Positions 1 through 9,964 of a stretch of 64,000 bases of DNA are shown in pieces. Position numbers and translations under genes: made by a program. The stretch is from Escherichia coli. Lineage in GTDB: Bacteria; Pseudomonadota; Gammaproteobacteria; Enterobacterales; Enterobacteriaceae. Each line of letters begins with the position of its first letter. The stretch's first letter is position 1. A model generated the notes under the pieces. It was given only the letters and a program-made list of their open reading frames with translations. It made no database searches and was not told the DNA's origin. The stretch lies in assembly GCF_044324785.1 (NCBI RefSeq), contig NZ_CP172127.1; one strand, 5' to 3'.

Positions 1-900
1 GGGCTGATTGTGCCGCTGATTAGCGCGGCAATTGCCTATTCTATTGCCGATCGTCCCGGATTTGCCCCAGGCCTGATTGTCGGCTTTCTCTGCGGGCAAA
101 TCCATACCGGATTTATTGGCGGTATGTTGGGTGGTTTCCTGGTGGGCTACACCATTTTGCTACTTAAACGCTATATCCGCCTGCCGCAGTCGATGCAAGG
201 ACTCATGCCAATCATGGTGTTGCCGGTATTAAGCACCATTATCGGTGGGCTGTTAATGATGACGCTGATTGGTAAACCCATCGCCTGGTTACAAGAAGCA
301 CTGATTCATTTGCTCGAGTCGATGCAGGGCGGATCGCGCTTCCTGATGGGGGCCATACTTGGCGCGATGGCAACCTTCGATTTCGGTGGTCCGGTCAACA
401 AAACCATGTCGCTGTTTTCCGATGGCTTGCTGGTCAGTGGCGTCTACGGACCAGAAGCCGTGAAATTTGTCGGCTCAATCATCCCTCCGTTTGGCATCAC
501 ACTTTCGTTCTTACTGACACGCCATAAATACACCCGTGCGGAGCGCGAGGCGCTGAAAGCCGCGTTTCCGATGGGGATCTGCATGATCACTGAAGGAGTC
601 ATTCCTATCGCCGCGCGTGACCTGCTGCGAGTAGTGGGATCTTGTGTGGTGGCATCGGCGGTCGCGGGCGGCTTAATCATGGTGTGGGGCGTGGAGAGTC
701 CGGTTCCGCATGGCGGCATGTTTGTTGTGCCTCTGTTCACCCATCCTCTGCTGTTTTGCCTGGCGCTGGGTATAGGCACGGTGATTTGTGGCGTGATGCT
801 TTCACTCTGGAAGAAACCGGTAACGGAACGCGACGAAGAGTTTGACGAACTGAGCGATCAAAAGCTGAAAGATGAAGAGATCACTTTCACCCTCGAATAA
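1..900 (+). CDS. PTS fructose-family EIIC permease component, 5'-truncated at window edge (frz-like operon)
   Basis: Frame open from nt 1 and in frame with listed ORF 10..900; hydrophobic multi-TM translation with Gly-rich EIIC-like segment GFIGGMLGGFLVGY; followed by co-oriented aldolase and kinase genes. Confidence 0.65.
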   Translation, partial: GLIVPLISAAIAYSIADRPGFAPGLIVGFLCGQIHTGFIGGMLGGFLVGYTILLLKRYIRLPQSMQGLMPIMVLPVLSTIIGGLLMMTLIGKPIAWLQEALIHLLESMQGGSRFLMGAILGAMATFDFGGPVNKTMSLFSDGLLVSGVYGPEAVKFVGSIIPPFGITLSFLLTRHKYTRAEREALKAAFPMGICMITEGVIPIAARDLLRVVGSCVVASAVAGGLIMVWGVESPVPHGGMFVVPLFTHPLLFCLALGIGTVICGVMLSLWKKPVTERDEEFDELSDQKLKDEEITFTLE

Positions 901-911
901 CCGGAGGCCCT

Positions 912-1763
912 ATGTTTGCCGATATGAAAAGTATGGTGATGAAAGCCTGGCATGAACATTACGCCTTGCTGGCGATCAACTGTATGAATCTGGAAAGTGC
1001 TCACGCAGCTATCCGCGTGGCGGAGAAGAATCGCGCTCCGATCATTCTCAATCTCTATCAGGGGCATCTGGCGCATTTTCCTGCACCCGTCGCGGCGGCA
1101 GTGGTTAAAACGCTCGCGGAATCTGCCTCAGTACCGGTCACTCTGGCGCTTGATCATGGCAAAAATCCGGACTGTATTCGTCAGGCGTTTCGTGCTGGTT
1201 TCAGCGGATTAATGATTGATGCTTCTGCTTTTCCCCTGGAGGAAAACGTGCGCCAGACCAGGGCGGTGGTGGAACTCGCCGCCAGCGCGCAGCTCTGCGT
1301 GGAAGGCGAACTGGGCCATCTGGCAGATGCGCCGCGTTACGACCAGGCCGCCAATGCAGACCTGATGACGCAACCCACTGATGTGGAACCGTTTATCGCG
1401 CAGACAGGCATTGATCTACTGGCCGTCTCGGTAGGCACGGCGCACGGCATGTACGCGCCTGGTGTTGTACCTGCTATTGATTTTCAGCGTCTGGCGGAGA
1501 TTTTCCACTGCTCGAGCGTGCCTCTGGCATTACATGGCGGTAGCGGTACGCCGTTCGATCAGCTCCAGCTCTGTACGACGCTGGGGGTAGCAAAAATCAA
1601 CGTGGGGGCGGCCATTTTTGAACGGGGGAAATCCGCGCTCCTGCATACCCTCTGTCACGATATATCCATTGAACTGGTGGACGCGCTGAAAGCTATGGAA
1701 CTGGCCTTCGAAGAAGCGATTACACCGTATTTACAGGCGAGCGGCTCTATAGGCAAAGCCTGA
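912..1763 (+). CDS. class II ketose-bisphosphate aldolase family protein (fructose/tagatose-bisphosphate aldolase-like)
   Basis: 283-aa ORF; GGAGG 7 nt upstream of ATG; class II aldolase-like segments (LDHG, EGELG, HGGSG). Confidence 0.7.
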   Translation: MFADMKSMVMKAWHEHYALLAINCMNLESAHAAIRVAEKNRAPIILNLYQGHLAHFPAPVAAAVVKTLAESASVPVTLALDHGKNPDCIRQAFRAGFSGLMIDASAFPLEENVRQTRAVVELAASAQLCVEGELGHLADAPRYDQAANADLMTQPTDVEPFIAQTGIDLLAVSVGTAHGMYAPGVVPAIDFQRLAEIFHCSSVPLALHGGSGTPFDQLQLCTTLGVAKINVGAAIFERGKSALLHTLCHDISIELVDALKAMELAFEEAITPYLQASGSIGKA

Positions 1764-1843
1764 TTCATTTTCTGTCATGGCCTTTATGCCAGTGCAATAA
1801 CGCACCGGCAGGGCGGACTACACGCTGAAACTGGAGATTTAAC

Positions 1844-2704
1844 ATGTTAGTTTCGATGAAAGAATTACTGCAACCTACCCGCCAGCACGGCTTTGCCATT
1901 GGCGCATTTAATGTGGCGGATAACTGTTTCCTTCGCGCAGTCGTGGATGAAGCAGAAGCGACAAATACTCCGGCGATTATTGCCATCCATCCCAGCGAAC
2001 ATGATTTTGTGGGCGATGCCTTTTTCGCTCACGTTCGCGAAATTACCCAGCGTAGTCCGGTCCCGTTTGTACTGCACCTCGATCATGGTGCCTCTGTAGA
2101 GCATGTTTTGCGTGCGATTCGCTGCGGATTTACCTCAGTAATGATCGACGGTTCGCTGCTGCCGTATGAAGAAAACGTGGCGCTGACCGCAGAAGTGGTT
2201 CACCTCGCTCACGCGGTTGGAGTGTCGGTTGAGGGTGAACTGGGAACCATCGGACAAACAGGAACGTCGGTAGAAGGTGGTGTTTCACAAGTGACCTACA
2301 CAGATCCGGCGCAGGCCGCCGATTTTATTGCTCGTACAGGTGCCGACACACTGGCTGTGGCGATTGGTACAGCGCATGGCATCTATCCAAAAGGGATGCA
2401 GCCGAAGCTGCAAATGGACATTTTGCGCGACATTGCCGGACGTATTGATATTCCGCTGGTGCTACACGGTGGTTCGGCAAACCCGGACGCGGAGATTGCT
2501 GAATCAGTTACGCTCGGCGTCGGCAAAATCAATATCTCCAGTGATATGAAATACGCCTATTTCCAGAAAGTGCGTGAAATTCTCGCTAAAGAGAGCTGGT
2601 GGGACCCGAACGTCATCTATCCGGATGCGATTAACGCGGCGCGGGAAGTCATTCGCCACAAAATGAAACTGTTCGGTTCGCTCGGTAAAGCATCACTGTA
2701 CTAA
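1844..2704 (+). CDS. class II ketose-bisphosphate aldolase family protein (second paralog)
   Basis: 286-aa ORF with LHLDHG, VEGELG, LHGGS segments typical of class II FBP/tagatose-BP aldolases. Confidence 0.7.
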   Translation: MLVSMKELLQPTRQHGFAIGAFNVADNCFLRAVVDEAEATNTPAIIAIHPSEHDFVGDAFFAHVREITQRSPVPFVLHLDHGASVEHVLRAIRCGFTSVMIDGSLLPYEENVALTAEVVHLAHAVGVSVEGELGTIGQTGTSVEGGVSQVTYTDPAQAADFIARTGADTLAVAIGTAHGIYPKGMQPKLQMDILRDIAGRIDIPLVLHGGSANPDAEIAESVTLGVGKINISSDMKYAYFQKVREILAKESWWDPNVIYPDAINAAREVIRHKMKLFGSLGKASLY

Positions 2705-2751
2705 GCCAGAAGGGCGGGGTGACCCGCCTTTTACGCAACAAGGAACGAGAT

Positions 2752-3684
2752 ATGCACTATCTGGGGTTGGATATTGGTGGGACCAAAATCGCCGCCGTCG
2801 TCATGGATGCGCATGGCTGGGAGATTCGCCGTTACCGCTGCCCGACGCAAAAGTCGACATATCAACAATTTGTCTCATGCGTTGTGGCGCTTATCGAGCA
2901 GATTAGGCGGGACGTTCAACGACCGATGCTGACAGGGATCGCCTTACCCGGCAGTATCTCGCCACTCACTGGCCTGATTAAAAACGCGAATATTCAGGTG
3001 ATTAACGGTCATGCGTTACAGGCTGATTTGCAGCAATTGCTTGGGCAACCGGTGGTGATAGCCAATGATGGTAACTGTTTCGCGCTATCAGAAGCTTGCG
3101 ACGGTGCCGGGCAAGATTATGACGTAGTATTTGGTATTACGCTTGGTACAGGCTGCGGCGGTGGCATTGCCATCAAGCAACGACCGTTTATAGGGGCCTG
3201 GGGAAATGCTGCCGAATGCGGTCATATCACGTTGCCAGGCTATATGGAGCAGGAAGATGGTCCATCAGTCAGTTGCTATTGCGGCAAACACAACTGCGTG
3301 GAGTCGTTTGTTTCCGGCAGCGGTTTTAGTGAACGCTATCAACAGATGACTGGTAACTTGCTCACTCCTGCGGCGATTGTCACCCTGGCACAACGTGGTG
3401 ATGCTTGTGCCATGCAGCAGGTGGCACGTTTTCGCCAACAGCTTGCCCGCACGCTGGCAACCATCGTTAACGTTGTTGACCCTGGCGTGATTGTGATCGG
3501 CGGCGGGCTTTCGAATGTGGAACTGCTTATCACCGATCTGAACGCAGAAGTCGCTCCACTGGTTTTCACCGATCAATTCACCACTCCCATTGTAAAAGCA
3601 CAGCACGGCGACAGTAGCGGAATGCGTGGCGCTGCCTGGCTTGCTATGCGCAACGGAGAAGCCAATGAAACGCTCACAAATTAA
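2752..3684 (+). CDS. ROK-family sugar kinase
   Basis: N-terminal LGLDIGGTKIA ATP-binding motif and Cys/His-rich ROK signature region (CYCGKHNCVE); start set at ATG 2752, preceded by AAGGA. Confidence 0.7.
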   Translation: MHYLGLDIGGTKIAAVVMDAHGWEIRRYRCPTQKSTYQQFVSCVVALIEQIRRDVQRPMLTGIALPGSISPLTGLIKNANIQVINGHALQADLQQLLGQPVVIANDGNCFALSEACDGAGQDYDVVFGITLGTGCGGGIAIKQRPFIGAWGNAAECGHITLPGYMEQEDGPSVSCYCGKHNCVESFVSGSGFSERYQQMTGNLLTPAAIVTLAQRGDACAMQQVARFRQQLARTLATIVNVVDPGVIVIGGGLSNVELLITDLNAEVAPLVFTDQFTTPIVKAQHGDSSGMRGAAWLAMRNGEANETLTN

Positions 3685-4345
3685 TTATGTTATTGATAAA
3701 GCACATGCCATTGCGCAGACCTTCCGCGTTTGTTTGCCAGAGTTCGCCTATTTTACGGTGGATGACTGGCTGCAGCGGGAACGGGATAACTGGCAAGAAG
3801 TGGTCGACTTACAGCTCGGTTGGGATATCACCGATTTTGGTCGTGGTGATTTCAACCAAACGGGACTAACACTGCTAACGATGCGCAACGGCGCGCTGGG
3901 GTCGGCGGCATATCCAAAACCGTATGCTGAGAAAATGTTGCAGATCCAACAAGATCAGCAGACTCCCTGGCATTTTCACATCCACAAAATGGAAGATATC
4001 CTCAATCGGGGCGGTGGAGACTTATGCATGCAGTTGGCCTGGGCCAACGAAGCCAATCTCTGTGATGATCAACGAGTCATTACCGTGAGTGTTGATGGTC
4101 AGCGGCGTACCATGAAACCTGGTGAAACGCTGGTGCTAAAGCCGGGACAGGGCATTTGCCTGCCGCCGCGTCTGTATCATCGCTTCTGGGCGGAAAAAGC
4201 GTTTGTTCTCGGCTGGGAAATCTCGATGGTAAATGATGACCAACACGATAATTATTTTCTTGAGCCGGGAGGACGTTTTCCGGCGATAGAAGAAGATGAA
4301 CCGGTGAAATGGTTATTGTGCAGTGAGTATGGAATTTTGCGCTAA
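3665..4345 (+). CDS. cupin-superfamily sugar isomerase-like protein (D-lyxose/mannose isomerase-like)
   Basis: 226-aa frame starting MKRSQINYV; ATG overlaps ROK kinase stop (translational coupling); His-rich cupin-like core (WHFHIHK); last gene of operon. Confidence 0.5.
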   Translation: MKRSQINYVIDKAHAIAQTFRVCLPEFAYFTVDDWLQRERDNWQEVVDLQLGWDITDFGRGDFNQTGLTLLTMRNGALGSAAYPKPYAEKMLQIQQDQQTPWHFHIHKMEDILNRGGGDLCMQLAWANEANLCDDQRVITVSVDGQRRTMKPGETLVLKPGQGICLPPRLYHRFWAEKAFVLGWEISMVNDDQHDNYFLEPGGRFPAIEEDEPVKWLLCSEYGILR

Positions 4346-4354
4346 TAACGGGGA

Positions 4355-4388
4355 ACGCTAGCGCTGATATCCGCTAGCGTCCTTATTT
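4355..4388. terminator. rho-independent terminator-like hairpin between convergent cupin gene and yicH
   Basis: 9-bp stem ACGCTAGCG/CGCTAGCGT with 8-nt loop followed by T-rich tract. Confidence 0.45.
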
Positions 4389-6098
4389 TTACTGCACCGG
4401 CTCCGTCGACGTAACTTCACCACTGGAAACTACGCCCGCATTCATGGTTTGAGTCACTTGCTGCTTTGCGGCGTTCACGGCATGGAGTTGCCCGCTAACC
4501 GTAGGTTTCAGCGGGATATTGGCCTGAATATCGCCGCTGGCGGTAAGCTGAATATTGCCGTCGCCAGTCAACGGTAATTCAGGCCATCCCCACTGTTGCA
4601 AAATATTCACCGGCACACCGCGTCCATTCAGGCTGATATGGGTCTGACGTTGTGGCGTTTGTGAAACACTGGCGGTGGCTTCCAGAATGCCTTTTTCAGT
4701 AAATGCACTCAGTTCGCTGATATTCACCGTGCTGCTGTTGGCGGTTAGCGCCAGCGATGGGCGACGAATATCAACACGATTAAACGTCGCGGCGGCGGCA
4801 TTCAGATTCGCCGAGCCACTCCAGACGCCCCATTTATGATCGGTAACCAGCGTCAGATTGGCACCGTAACCATCGAGCGCGGTGAGCTGCCACGGGAAGT
4901 CAGGGTCGATATCAATGATCAGATTGCGGCTGGCGCTAAATCTCTTCAGTTGCAGGCTGTTTAACCAACCGGGTGTCGTTTCCATCCACAACTGTTGCCA
5001 GTTTTTTGGCAAGGTATATTCCAGTCCGGCAATTGCCGCATCATCAAGGATCAACGTTTTCCCGTTGCGCAGCCAGTTCCCGGACGTTCTGACCATGCCC
5101 CCTTCCCAGCGGCTGGTGAACTGGCGCAGCGCTACGCCCTGCGGGGAAAATTCCGCGTTTATAATCGGGTCAAATAAATGCAGCGAACCATAAATGAACT
5201 CGCTGGCGTTCATCGACAGTTTGCCTTCCTGTGTCTGCCAGTCATCTTTACTGAAGGTCATGTTGCGCAAGCTGAGATCGAGGTCGGTCACCGCCCAGTC
5301 CGGACCTTGCAAACGAGCATCGATGACTTCCAGGCGACCAATCTGCAACGACGGGACAGAGCGTAATGGCGCAAAGAAGTCGGTTAGCGATTTTTCGCTT
5401 TGTAGACGGATATCCGCCAGCCGCAGATTTTCCACTTGCCAGCTGCCGTCAGCGTTACGCTGCGCGTTTCCGGTTAATGTCCCGCGGGCGATGTCGGCAC
5501 CCAGGTTAGTCAGCGTAACGCGATCGTTATCAATACTGCCTTCAATCAGTACATTGGTGGCAGGAACATCATTGAGCGAAAGCGATCCGGCACTAAACTG
5601 AATCTGCGCCTTCGTACCCAGCACTTTACCGGCTTCAGGTGACCACGGAACCACGCCGCCATTTACTCGCTGCGCGCTTAGTTTCCATTCGCTATTCGGG
5701 CTATTAAACGCCATATCACGCAGTTGCAGACGATCGGCTTTGAACGGTAGCGGCGCGGTCTGGTCGGTGAGATTCAGCGTCCCGTTTTCCAGCAGGATGG
5801 TATCGACATGGCGTGGTTCGGTCAGTTGCCGACTGCTTAGCGCAATGTCGACACTTTTTGCCACCAGGGTCGCGGGCTGGCCATCACGACCAAACGTGAC
5901 GTTCTCCAGCACGATATGAGATGGCGCGGAAAAACGGTGATCCATCGCCCCGAAAGCCAGATGATAGTCGCTATTCTCGGAAACCCATGCGCTGATATGT
6001 TCTGCTCCCCAGCGGGTTTGCAGAAGAAAATAGAGGCCAGCGATCACCACTAACAGAGCGATGAGAATGTAGAGAAGCAGCTTCCCAATAAATTTCAT
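4389..6098 (-). CDS. yicH: AsmA-family outer-membrane biogenesis protein YicH
   Basis: 569-aa translation from MKFIGKLLLYILIALLVV with N-terminal signal anchor; position next to xanP as in E. coli. Confidence 0.85.
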   Translation of the reverse strand: MKFIGKLLLYILIALLVVIAGLYFLLQTRWGAEHISAWVSENSDYHLAFGAMDHRFSAPSHIVLENVTFGRDGQPATLVAKSVDIALSSRQLTEPRHVDTILLENGTLNLTDQTAPLPFKADRLQLRDMAFNSPNSEWKLSAQRVNGGVVPWSPEAGKVLGTKAQIQFSAGSLSLNDVPATNVLIEGSIDNDRVTLTNLGADIARGTLTGNAQRNADGSWQVENLRLADIRLQSEKSLTDFFAPLRSVPSLQIGRLEVIDARLQGPDWAVTDLDLSLRNMTFSKDDWQTQEGKLSMNASEFIYGSLHLFDPIINAEFSPQGVALRQFTSRWEGGMVRTSGNWLRNGKTLILDDAAIAGLEYTLPKNWQQLWMETTPGWLNSLQLKRFSASRNLIIDIDPDFPWQLTALDGYGANLTLVTDHKWGVWSGSANLNAAAATFNRVDIRRPSLALTANSSTVNISELSAFTEKGILEATASVSQTPQRQTHISLNGRGVPVNILQQWGWPELPLTGDGNIQLTASGDIQANIPLKPTVSGQLHAVNAAKQQVTQTMNAGVVSSGEVTSTEPVQ

Positions 6099-6218: not shown

Positions 6219-7610
6219 TTACTGTTTTTCTGGTGGGAAAATCAGATTCAGCACGATGGCAGTAATACCGCCCGCGGCGATCCCGGAGGAGAGCAGGTTT
6301 TTCAGCCATTCAGGGGCAAACTGCAAAATCAGCGGCTGCTGAGAAACGCCCAGACCGACCGCTAGCGACAGCGCGATAATCAGAATCGCCCGACGGTTCA
6401 GCGGCTCACGAGAAACGATACGCACACCGGAGGCGGCGATGGTGCCAAACATTACAAGCGTTGCGCCGCCCAGAACCGGTTCTGGAATGTGTTGTACAAA
6501 ACCGCTCACTGCCGGGAACAGACCCAGCACGATCAACATCAGCGCGACGACAAAACCGACATAGCGGCTGGCAACACCGGTCAACTGGATCACACCGTTG
6601 TTCTGCCCGAAGCAGGAGTTCGGGAAAGTGTTAAACACCGCCGAAACAAACGAGTTCAGGCCGTTTGCCAGCACGCCGCCTTTCAGGCGTTTCATGTACA
6701 GCGGACCGGACACTGGCTGTTCGGAAACGTCAGAGGTCGCCGTGATATCGCCAATGGTTTCCAGCGAAGTGATCATAAAGACCAGCATCAGCGGCAGCAG
6801 CAGACTCCATTCAATGCCAAGACCGTAATAGAGCGGCGTTGGCACCATAATCAGTTCTTGCGTCATCGGTTCGTTGCTTTCTGGCAACATGCCCATAAAC
6901 CACGCCAGCGCATATCCGGCCGCCATCGCAATCACCAGTGAGGCCACGCGCAAATATGGGTTACGCTGACGGTTAAGCAGGATAATTAAGGCTAAGACCA
7001 CGCCCGCCAGCAGCAGATTTTTCGGTGCGCCGAAGGTGTTATCGCTCATGGCTGCGTAACCGCCGCCAATGGACGTTAACCCAACCTGAATTAGCGACAG
7101 GCCGATAATCATCACCACAACGCCAGAAACTAGCGGCGTAATAATGCGGCGCGCCAGATGCAGAACGCGGGAGATCACCATCTCAGTGCAACTTGCCAGC
7201 ATCAACGTGCCGAACAAAGCCGCCATCATGGTAGGAACATCAGCACCACCGGTCTTCAGCGCTGTGCCGCCCATAATCAGCGGGGCAACAAAGTTGAAGC
7301 TGGTGCCCTGAATAGACAACAGCCCGGAGCCAACCGGACCCCAGGCCTTAATTTGAATAATCGATGCCACACCGGAGGCAAACAGCGACATACTAATAAT
7401 GTGTTGCGTGTCTTGTGCCGGTAAACCCAGCGCCTGGCAGATTAATAGCGCTGGCGTGATCACCGCAACGAACATCGCCAGCAAATGCTGACAGGCGGCA
7501 AACAGGGTTTGAGGAAGCGGCGGACGATCTTCAAGACGGTAAATCAGTTCGCTGTTTTGAGTCTGCGCAACCGGTTGCGCATTTTCTGACTCGAGGGTGG
7601 AAACAGACAT
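6219..7610 (-). CDS. xanP: xanthine permease XanP (NCS2 family)
   Basis: 463-aa multi-TM translation [34 protein letters not shown] recognised as XanP. Confidence 0.9.
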
Positions 7611-7889
7611 CGAAAACAATCCCGTGGTAGCAAAGCGGGCATTTTAGCTGACCGAAAGAGAAAAGCAAACGTTTGCCACATCCTCATCTAAATATTTAAA
7701 TGAGATAAATGTACTTTTTTATATAACTTTTAGTTGTTTTCTGCTTAAAATCCATGCCATTTTTCTATTTTCAGCTAAGAATTCGAACCAGGAAAGCATG
7801 ACTCGATACTCGTCATATTTCGCCTTACTGCAAATGCGCGATGAAGTATGACGAGTATGAAAGAGTGATGCGGACACAAAGGAGTAACT

Positions 7890-9095
7890 ATGTTTCATCT
7901 CGATACTTTAGCAACGCTTGTTGCCGCAACGCTGACGTTGCTGCTCGGGCGCAAGTTGGTCCATTCCGTCTCCTTTTTGAAGAAATACACCATACCGGAA
8001 CCTGTTGCGGGTGGTTTATTAGTGGCGCTGGCGCTACTGGTACTGAAAAAAAGCATGGGCTGGGAAGTCAACTTTGATATGTCCCTGCGCGATCCGTTAA
8101 TGCTGGCTTTCTTCGCCACCATTGGTTTGAACGCCAACCTTGCCAGTCTGCGTGCCGGTGGGCGTGTGGTTGGCATCTTCTTGATTGTGGTTGTTGGTCT
8201 GTTGGTGATGCAAAATGCCATTGGCATTGGTATGGCTAGCCTGTTAGGGCTTGATCCGCTGATGGGGCTGTTGGCCGGTTCTATTACGCTTTCCGGCGGT
8301 CACGGTACGGGCGCTGCGTGGAGTAAATTGTTCATTGAACGCTATGGCTTCACCAATGCGACGGAAGTGGCGATGGCCTGTGCGACGTTTGGTCTGGTGC
8401 TGGGCGGCTTGATTGGCGGTCCGGTAGCGCGCTATCTGGTGAAACACTCCACCACGCCGAACGGTATTCCGGATGACCAGGAAGTCCCGACGGCGTTCGA
8501 AAAGCCGGATGTGGGCCGCATGATCACCTCGCTGGTGCTGATTGAAACTATCGCGCTGATTGCTATCTGCCTGACGGTGGGGAAAATTGTTGCGCAACTT
8601 TTGGCTGGCACTGCTTTTGAACTGCCGACCTTCGTCTGTGTACTGTTTGTTGGCGTGATTCTGAGCAACGGTCTGTCAATGATGGGCTTTTACCGCGTCT
8701 TTGAGCGTGCGGTATCCGTGCTGGGTAACGTAAGCCTGTCGTTGTTCCTGGCGATGGCGCTGATGGGGCTGAAACTATGGGAGCTGGCTTCGCTGGCGCT
8801 GCCGATGCTGGCGATTCTGGTGGTACAGACCATCTTCATGGCGTTGTATGCCATCTTCGTTACCTGGCGCATGATGGGCAAAAACTACGATGCGGCGGTG
8901 CTGGCTGCGGGTCATTGTGGTTTTGGCCTCGGTGCAACGCCAACGGCAATCGCCAACATGCAGGCGATCACTGAACGTTTTGGCCCGTCGCACATGGCCT
9001 TCCTGGTAGTGCCGATGGTCGGTGCGTTCTTTATTGATATCGTTAACGCGCTGGTGATTAAGCTGTATTTAATGTTGCCGATTTTTGCGGGCTAA
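7890..9095 (+). CDS. gltS: sodium/glutamate symporter GltS
   Basis: 401-aa translation MFHLDTLATLVAATLTLLLGRKLV recognised as GltS; divergent from xanP. Confidence 0.9.
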   Translation: MFHLDTLATLVAATLTLLLGRKLVHSVSFLKKYTIPEPVAGGLLVALALLVLKKSMGWEVNFDMSLRDPLMLAFFATIGLNANLASLRAGGRVVGIFLIVVVGLLVMQNAIGIGMASLLGLDPLMGLLAGSITLSGGHGTGAAWSKLFIERYGFTNATEVAMACATFGLVLGGLIGGPVARYLVKHSTTPNGIPDDQEVPTAFEKPDVGRMITSLVLIETIALIAICLTVGKIVAQLLAGTAFELPTFVCVLFVGVILSNGLSMMGFYRVFERAVSVLGNVSLSLFLAMALMGLKLWELASLALPMLAILVVQTIFMALYAIFVTWRMMGKNYDAAVLAAGHCGFGLGATPTAIANMQAITERFGPSHMAFLVVPMVGAFFIDIVNALVIKLYLMLPIFAG

Positions 9096-9097
9096 AA

Positions 9098-9964
9098 ATG
9101 AAAAAGCGTCGGAAGGAACCGGAAACGCTACGTGAACACTGTCGCCATATTTTTGGTGATGAGCCGCCAGTGCTCTGTGTATGGGAAACGGAATTTGATT
9201 ACGCAGATGCCGAACTCAAGGCGCTGGCGGCTAAAGAGTGGCAGCAGATCAGCGAATGGGATTTGAGTGCTTACTATGTACTCAATCTCGTTTATAACGA
9301 ACCGATGCAACCAGAGTTGTTTCGCTATCTGTTTCCGCTCTGCCTGGCGCAATGGCATGAAACCGTTTTAGCTGGCGGTTATGGTGATCACTTCGAAGAA
9401 TCATTAATGAAGGCATTGCGTCGGCCCTATCTCTGGCAGGAGATGATGAATGCTTCCCAACGCCAGCAGGTACGGCAATTTTTACTGGAAACCGCGTTGC
9501 AGCGTATGGATAACGAGCGCGGTTTCAATAATGTTCTTTGCTGGCTGGCGGTGTTCAATACTCTGGGCGGGGCCGCGCCATTAATTCGTCCCCTTTGGTC
9601 ACGCTGGTGGGCACTGGATACGCCCGGCAAAGCGGTGTGTGCTATTCAATATGCTGCGCATCTTATTTATCCCATAGAAGCCAATCCGTTATGGTCGCAA
9701 GAATGGTTAGGCTGGGGGCATCCATTAGGCCATAAAGATGGCTGGTCCTCTGAGAATCGCGCTTTTCTTCGCCAGATGTTAACACCTGAAATGATTGTGG
9801 CTGGCGTACAGGCAGCGGCTGAAATTCTGCGTGGTGAACCGGAAGGCACAATGGCGGCGCGAATTGCGCAGGATGCGTATGAGGCAATGGATATCATCAC
9901 TATCCAGATTGAAGATTTACTGCGTGACTTGTCTTGCGATGAGTCAGGTCATGCGTTGGAGTAA
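9098..9964 (+). CDS. hypothetical protein (Trp-rich, soluble), not part of the K-12 gltS-recG junction as I recall it
   Basis: 288-aa ORF starting 3 nt after gltS stop; 3' end overlaps recG 3' end by 16 nt; no recognisable motif. Confidence 0.45.
   Translation: MKKRRKEPETLREHCRHIFGDEPPVLCVWETEFDYADAELKALAAKEWQQISEWDLSAYYVLNLVYNEPMQPELFRYLFPLCLAQWHETVLAGGYGDHFEESLMKALRRPYLWQEMMNASQRQQVRQFLLETALQRMDNERGFNNVLCWLAVFNTLGGAAPLIRPLWSRWWALDTPGKAVCAIQYAAHLIYPIEANPLWSQEWLGWGHPLGHKDGWSSENRAFLRQMLTPEMIVAGVQAAAEILRGEPEGTMAARIAQDAYEAMDIITIQIEDLLRDLSCDESGHALE

Follow-up and report, generated by a model that had tools for sequence, protein, structure and literature searches.

What is the protein-coding segment that lies between gltS and recG in some strains of Escherichia coli, and is it an insertion or an old resident of this site? 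The question is raised by a 64,000-nucleotide (nt) stretch of E. coli DNA (contig NZ_CP172127.1 of assembly GCF_044324785.1; hereafter the window), in which an open reading frame (ORF) of 288 amino acids (aa) occupies positions 9098 to 9964. An initial annotation had described this ORF as unplaced, rich in tryptophan (Trp) and without a recognisable motif, had taken it for a strain-variable segment and had likened its product to orphan immunity proteins and small accessory factors. We found a real, conserved and variably present gene. Its distribution in the population, the structure of its alleles, its synteny, the predicted fold class and charge of its product, and the linkage of its relatives to RNA-repair genes in one clade are firmly established. 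About the role of the protein we can offer only a low-confidence guess: it may serve RNA-damage responses as an adaptor or binding protein without catalytic activity.

The gltS–recG junction and its alleles

The junction is laid out in the window as follows.

7890–9095, plus strand: gltS (sodium/glutamate symporter), upstream; 401-aa ORF, annotated in N3, C43(DE3), Sakai and E24377A
9093–9100, plus strand: stop-start junction TAA-AA-ATG of gltS and the ORF, read from the sequence
9098–9964, plus strand: the ORF (Ybl159/ECs_4528 homologue); ATG start, 288 aa; product acidic, Trp-rich and predicted to be all-helical
9096–9952: allele-specific segment, delimited by blastn against K-12
9949–9964: tail-to-tail overlap of the ORF and recG coding ends, 16 nt; the recG stop codon is TGA here versus TAA in ORF-less alleles
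9949–12030, minus strand: recG, convergent, downstream; 693 aa as annotated, 2,082-nt coding sequence (CDS), MKGRLL...ERYSNA

The position and size first given for the ORF were exact. The gltS stop codon occupies 9093–9095 and the ATG begins at 9098, which leaves two spacer bases and places the start at +3; on the opposite strand the recG stop codon begins at 9949. recG is the final gene of the rpoZ-spoT-trmH-recG cluster, and an overlap of the same type joins the homologue to recG in Intestinirhabdus (locus L017). The Trp content is indeed unusually high: 13 of the 288 residues (4.5%), about three times the ~1.5% of a typical E. coli protein.

We then analysed the distribution of the segment by megablast against 5,426 complete E. 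coli genomes. It was present in 1,917 of these (about 35%), always on the chromosome and always adjoining recG, in one copy per genome with a second, partial match in 4 genomes. Carriers include O157:H7, the BL21 derivative C43(DE3) and the enterotoxigenic strain E24377A. In K-12 MG1655, gltS and recG are adjacent, as the initial annotation stated, and are separated by a 168-bp spacer without the ORF. Its blastn homology to the window ends exactly at the gltS stop (9095) and restarts at 9953, and the spacer holds no remnant of the ORF. A third allele with 33 bp between the genes was found in HCM-27C-1 and UPEC132 (L037, L058). The alleles were distributed as follows.

ORF allele (853 bp): 1,917 genomes
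K-12-type allele (168 bp, at least 80% coverage): 1,873 genomes
Remaining genomes, including the 33-bp form: about 1,636, by subtraction

The 33-bp allele is a single GC-rich hairpin followed by a T-run and resembles a bidirectional terminator. The K-12 spacer comprises the same hairpin region plus an insertion of ~135 bp (GCCTGATACGCTTCGCTTATCAAGCCTGCG...) that resembles a repetitive extragenic palindromic (REP) element, an identity recognised by eye. With its terminator-like hairpin and REP-like insertion, the K-12 allele is akin to the REP and bacterial interspersed mosaic element (BIME) spacers of E. coli; it codes no protein and has no sequence in common with the ORF allele. That is, at least three junction alleles exist at this site in E. 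coli, one of them protein-coding. The claim of a strain-variable segment of ~0.86 kb was borne out, and a check for presence in all E. coli including K-12 left this variability standing.

The description of the ORF as unplaced does not hold. RefSeq annotates it as a hypothetical-protein CDS in every genome examined, it is known as ECs_4528 (O157:H7 Sakai), WP_000747329.1 (C43(DE3)), WP_000747328.1 (E24377A) and 'Ybl159' (UniRef), and its orthologues are syntenic in other Enterobacteriaceae. Because its locus tags are out of numerical order in C43(DE3) and E24377A, we infer that the gene was added to these genomes at re-annotation.

Is the ORF a functional gene? Its protein evolves about five times as fast as those of its neighbours, with 71% identity to the Salmonella orthologue versus 93% for both GltS and RecG. 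This rate, a weak codon bias, the existence of truncated variants in the protein collection and the fact that earlier annotations missed the gene, as the locus tags indicate, would fit an ORF that is decaying, non-functional or an annotation artefact. However, by the Nei-Gojobori method its dN/dS ratio comes to 0.13 in a comparison with the common E. coli allele and to 0.06 between C43 and Salmonella; for the flanking gltS and recG it is 0.02–0.04. Moreover, the ORF was intact in 29 of 29 full-length genomes sampled, and the family is conserved across phyla with a confidently predicted fold. Non-functionality is thus largely excluded, and we regard it as barely credible. Judged from these substitution patterns, the ORF is a real gene under purifying selection, fast-evolving and with weak codon bias. 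The weak codon bias and the fast evolution together suggest that its expression may be low.

Start and stop codons of gltS and the ORF are tightly spaced, with 2 nt between them in E. coli, 1 nt in Salmonella and a 1-nt overlap in a metagenomic Enterobacteriaceae genome (L009), while species with a different upstream gene possess their own GGGAGG Shine-Dalgarno sequence. The conserved tight spacing, or the Shine-Dalgarno sequence where gltS is absent, supports translation in all species and coupling to gltS. The ORF is probably co-transcribed with gltS and, where gltS adjoins, probably translationally coupled to it. A scan of 7500–10400 revealed neither promoter-like sites nor a terminator-like site after the gltS stop, the nearest terminator-like hairpin (9009–9025) being inside the gltS coding sequence. 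Between the convergent gltS-ORF and spoT-trmH-recG units of the ORF allele, no terminator-like hairpin was detected, the minus strand included; the ORF-less alleles (L037, L002) consist essentially of such a hairpin between convergent genes. In strains with the ORF, convergent read-through between the gltS-ORF and spoT-operon transcripts may occur.

Age and origin of the segment

Homologues of the ORF occupy the same site outside E. coli. Convergent with the recG 3' end, they lie beside recG in Salmonella enterica (L003), in the metagenomic genome L009, where the protein is 49% identical, in two Superficieibacter species (L004, L016), in Intestinirhabdus alba (L017) and in Enterobacter sp. kpr-6 (L018). 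At some of these loci the upstream gene is one other than gltS. In a neighbour-joining tree, the recG-adjacent enterobacterial proteins form a single clade. Because several Enterobacteriaceae genera share the recG-adjacent site and their proteins form one clade, the simplest reading is that the ORF is ancestral beside recG and was lost or replaced in numerous lineages, among them K-12 and the E. coli and S. enterica reference genomes. In Superficieibacter electus we additionally observed an extra 127-aa ORF between the homologue and recG (L004, 5080–5463, minus strand), which overlaps the homologue's 3' end and has no Pfam match.

If the segment were a genomic islet of recent origin, or a mobile element inserted between gltS and recG, K-12 would equally lack the ORF, and the precise breakpoints at two stop codons and a third-position GC content below that of the flanks (0.50 versus 0.62–0.65) would fit. 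But the segment boundaries carry only short chance repeats, no integrase flanks the segment and the window contains no tRNA gene. In addition, the same site is filled in several Enterobacteriaceae genera, with a protein tree that resembles the species relationships. Within E. coli, the dS of the ORF is 0.10, equal to that of gltS, and its overall GC content of 50.5% is typical of the species. Insertion by a mobile element is thereby largely refuted, and we consider a recent islet very improbable. The view of an inserted accessory segment gives way to that of an old resident lost or replaced in lineages such as K-12.

How, then, did the alleles come to be distributed among strains? The window is 99–100% identical to UPEC132 at 1–4500 and around 14500–15500, and 93–95% identical across recG. 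Strain N3, in turn, matches the window at 99–100% identity across gltS and the ORF. Over recG, identity stays below 99% in all complete E. coli genomes and is highest in N3 (98.0%). Because identity to UPEC132 falls across recG while N3 matches gltS and the ORF, we place the ORF within a recombinant patch of ~8–13 kb in an otherwise uropathogenic E. coli (UPEC)-like background that normally carries the 33-bp allele. The region around 8000–13000, which holds gltS, the ORF, recG and trmH, is a mosaic and unusually diverged patch; it seems to be linked to the junction alleles, either as an old haplotype or as a segment gained by introgression. Taken together, the data indicate that the presence or absence of the ORF is an old polymorphism and that homologous recombination in the flanks moves the alleles from lineage to lineage.

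Three further features of the window were observed. Positions 1–4345 hold an intact accessory cluster for sugar utilisation, which encodes phosphotransferase system (PTS) fructose IIC, a ROK protein, a D-lyxose/D-mannose isomerase and two class II aldolases. Only 1,605 of the 5,426 E. coli genomes carry this cluster, a second strain-variable segment of the window; UPEC132 has it between yicI and yicH, with a BglG antiterminator gene and PTS IIA/IIB genes upstream of it. Antisense inside recG, the plus strand at 10956–11210 matches the Rfam family Ysr141 (Yersinia sRNA 141) over the full model length with 146 bits (E=4.9e-41), below the gathering score of 196; this match may simply reflect conserved recG sequence in the model seed. 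A 546-aa ORF at 12435–14075 (plus strand), antisense to spoT (12732–14840, minus strand), most likely only mirrors the spoT reading frame as a shadow ORF.

Protein family, predicted fold and neighbouring genes

Domain databases did not place the protein. Pfam and NCBIfam gave no match, nor did PADLOC (anti-phage defence) and PHROGs for the ORF protein and five diverse family members. Among 50 diverse members searched against Pfam at E≤1, no family recurred. A sequence-profile search of the PDB returned a chance match only (E=0.17), and Rfam had no family within the ORF. The absence of a recognisable motif, as initially noted, was thus confirmed. A profile search against 1.84 billion cluster representatives identified 482 family representatives at E≤0.001, nearly all of them single-domain proteins of ~300 aa. 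Members belong to a few Enterobacteriaceae, Leminorella, Cupriavidus, a Zoogloeaceae metagenome-assembled genome (MAG), Sulfurovum, Kuenenia, many Planctomycetota and Armatimonadota. The 90%-identity protein cluster that holds the ORF protein (9,280 members) also includes GltS and has a 401-aa GltS as its representative; presumably bridged by fused or mis-called gltS-ORF gene models, this chimeric cluster initially masked the full-length E. coli cluster.

Motifs conserved across phyla include W-E-x-x-F-D, LQP(E/D)LFxYLFPxCL, WxxWW...PG.A and ENP...W..EN. A Gly-rich loop (GGGGPxL) is also present in most of the family, and a (H)GD(S/A)EFH motif in many members. Both elements are altered in the enterobacterial clade. 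Conserved polar residues are D34, Q71, N196 and N220, and many Trp and Tyr residues are conserved as well, among them Y60, W86, W149, W170, Y185 and W216. The family is uniformly acidic, with a median isoelectric point (pI) of 4.9 and a net charge of −5 to −22.

An AlphaFold2 model built from a 25-sequence alignment comprises 15 helices with a predicted local distance difference test (pLDDT) score of 90 and a predicted template modelling (pTM) score of 0.88. The ORF protein is predicted to be an acidic all-helical solenoid whose fold matches are only generic (HEAT/ARM-like). Foldseek yielded nothing at E≤0.001. Solenoids of the HEAT/ARM/CID type (the Rtt103 CID, importin-beta-like repeats, MIF4G, PUF) matched at the level of generic helical repeats with 6–12% identity, but no Pfam repeat family matches the ORF family. 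In the best explanation the product is cytoplasmic, has a pI of about 5 and lacks a recognisable catalytic motif. Because there are no family-wide catalytic residues and no enzyme fold match, and because solenoids typically bind, the protein would act by binding a partner (a protein or a damaged RNA end) and not by catalysis.

Two candidate relationships were rejected. An apparently shared 'F.YYLP' had prompted a comparison with DUF6714, a neighbour of the homologue in L012 and L020; hhalign gave a probability of 4% over 22 columns, and only one of the 50 family members matched DUF6714 weakly (E=0.069). Hidden paralogues among the neighbouring genes were found neither in the window nor at any locus examined.

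In Planctomycetota, the homologue (X) is repeatedly embedded among genes of RNA repair. The domains of its neighbours were verified with Pfam; metagenome loci came from a scan with a narrower family alignment, the others from genomes. The following arrangements were found.

L027: Hen1 - X - Pnkp
L025: RlaP - X - Pnkp, stops and starts overlapping
L029: RlaP - RlaP - X
L023: X - RlaP - RlaP - ADP-ribosylglycohydrolase
L041: Hen1 - X - Pnkp
L043: X - RlaP - R2K ATP-grasp - RlaP - Pnkp
L047: X - Pnkp
L054, L055: fragments of the same Hen1/RlaP/Pnkp set
L050: Macro+NADAR protein overlapping X
L039: convergent Schlafen/AlbA_2 gene

The link to Hen1, RlaP or Pnkp thus exists at nine planctomycetal loci (L023, L025, L027, L029, L041, L043, L047, L054, L055), with varying gene order. 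Among the eight clade loci judged to have enough sequence on both sides, four show it, and in the neighbour-joining tree the linked members are dispersed across the whole Planctomycetota clade. Because remnants of RlaP and Pnkp adjoin X in L027 and L029, the data suggest an ancestral arrangement Hen1-X-RlaP-RlaP-Pnkp. In L043, an R2K-clade ATP-grasp (7945–8736) lies between two RlaP genes, a combination for which we found no description in the literature consulted.

Candidate roles of the protein

Operon linkage is how Archease and RlaP are reported to have been first tied to RNA ligases (PMC3973293, PMC12776372). Pnkp/Hen1 is described as an established repair system for ribotoxin-cleaved RNA (PMC3675462, PMC4411300). 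RlaP, whose activity was first reported in a late-2025 preprint, is described as adding one or two nucleotides to damaged RNA 3' ends (PMC12776372). By their position inside Hen1/RlaP/Pnkp operons, the planctomycetal homologues resemble such RNA-repair accessories (Archease with RtcB, the Hen1 N-terminal domain with Pnkp, and RlaP), although X has no sequence or fold similarity to them and the E. coli gene lies outside such an operon. We infer that the family is tied to RNA-damage responses. Its ancestral role would be that of an accessory of RNA-damage repair, because the homologue is built into planctomycetal Hen1-X-RlaP-(R2K ATP-grasp)-RlaP-Pnkp operons and also sits beside ADP-ribose-removing enzymes. 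The stand-alone E. coli form would then be a derived version with a modified Gly-rich loop and HGDSEFH-like motif, acting with another partner or alone in tolerance of RNA-targeting toxins. E. coli possesses RtcB and RtcA (RtcBA) and is not known to have Pnkp or Hen1.

Several observations weigh against this proposal. At the E. coli locus, with gltS upstream and convergent recG downstream, there is no Pnkp, Hen1 or RlaP gene. No proteobacterial locus has RNA-repair neighbours, the homologue standing alone there, and the same is true of every inspected locus outside Planctomycetota. Five distant members, picked solely for sitting on the longest contigs, also stand alone among assorted small accessory genes (0 of 5 with RNA-repair neighbours). 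Between the E. coli clade and the operon-linked proteins, identity is only 33–37%, and two motifs conserved in the latter are lost or altered in the former; guilt by association within one clade transfers weakly across such a distance. The acidic charge argues against direct RNA binding, the fold matches are generic, and the coupling to gltS is read from spacing alone. Finally, we came across no mention of ECs4528, of ybl159 or of the likely EDL933 tags in the searchable literature. The weak step is thus to move an RNA-damage role from the planctomycetal proteins to that of E. coli, given the identity, the neighbours and the altered motifs.

We therefore grade the parts of the explanation separately. 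Those that do not concern function are close to certain. As a whole, a real and old gene whose product is an RNA-damage-linked binding or adaptor protein is the best explanation that we can offer, and we favour it tentatively. An RNA-damage-related role in E. coli itself is somewhat doubtful. A wider proposal would make the family an unrecognised component of RNA-damage responses: an adaptor or inhibitor with Pnkp/Hen1/RlaP in Planctomycetota, and a stand-alone factor in Enterobacteriaceae that protects tRNA or translation against ribotoxins (colicins E5/D, anticodon nucleases, phage- or competitor-delivered RNases); balancing selection would preserve the three junction alleles, whose flanks are unusually diverged. 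We hold this wider proposal to be decidedly unlikely.

Could the protein instead be an orphan immunity or antitoxin-like protein that neutralises a basic nuclease or ribotoxin of the colicin, contact-dependent inhibition (CDI) or Rhs type? Its polymorphism would then be kept since it is useful only where the toxin circulates. Like nuclease-toxin immunity proteins (colicin E5/D, barstar-like), it is acidic, predicted to be cytoplasmic, variable between strains and free of an enzymatic motif, and the family is helical. In L012 and in Cupriavidus (L020), the homologue lies in a run of small unannotated genes with transposase-like genes nearby, and in Planctomycetota it accompanies anti-ribotoxin systems, where an inhibitor would fit. 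However, a cognate toxin or an immunity array was detected neither at the E. coli, Salmonella and other enterobacterial loci nor identifiably in L012 and L020; no toxin gene adjoins the homologue at any locus inspected. The window holds one copy and the examined loci no paralogue. With 288 aa, the protein is much larger than most immunity proteins. Its chromosomal synteny is stable across several Enterobacteriaceae genera, unlike the mobility of a cassette. Known immunity families gave no match in Pfam, NCBIfam, PADLOC or PHROGs, and PDB sequence and fold searches nothing specific. The initial suggestion of an orphan immunity protein is thus without positive support in E. coli, where toxin genes, immunity arrays and marks of mobile elements are absent nearby, and we judge it unlikely.

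About as likely as immunity is a function unrelated to RNA, such as that of a scaffold, a small-molecule binder or an enzyme of a new type, which we regard as rather unlikely; the planctomycetal linkage would then be a lineage-specific recruitment. Most contexts outside the one clade are indeed miscellaneous (GNAT, DinB, glyoxalase, MarR, Band_7). In Leminorella, the homologue lies between gapA and an aldose epimerase, and in Sulfurovum beside transposases and a type IIG restriction enzyme. The conserved D34, Q71, N196 and N220 could, together with the Trp and Tyr residues, line a ligand pocket, and the HGDSEFH motif of some clades could bind a metal. In the Zoogloeaceae MAG, the homologue follows a retropepsin-like aspartic protease (Asp_protease_2/gag-asp_proteas; L011, 1869–2357), which directly precedes it with a 4-nt overlap. 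A similar protease lies ~5 kb from a distant homologue (L031, 298–732), which may be coincidence.

The sequence of the ORF is already known to the databases as a hypothetical protein. What appears to be new, as far as the searchable literature shows, is that these proteins form a family of a given fold class, that the gltS–recG junction has three alleles and that relatives are linked to Hen1/RlaP/Pnkp operons. The gene is carried by about a third of sequenced E. coli, yet it is only 'hypothetical' and belongs to no domain family, an oversight largely due to its absence from K-12. Should its function be unrelated to RNA, the finding amounts only to a well-described conserved hypothetical gene. 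In any case, the locus is a clear natural case of a core-genome region in which presence and absence of a gene have long coexisted as alleles. Beyond E. coli, the Hen1/RlaP/Pnkp wiring of its relatives supplies a hypothesis, concrete and open to test, about a family of some 480 sequence clusters. RNA-repair systems, whose set of accessory factors is still under study, may thereby gain a component that was missing.

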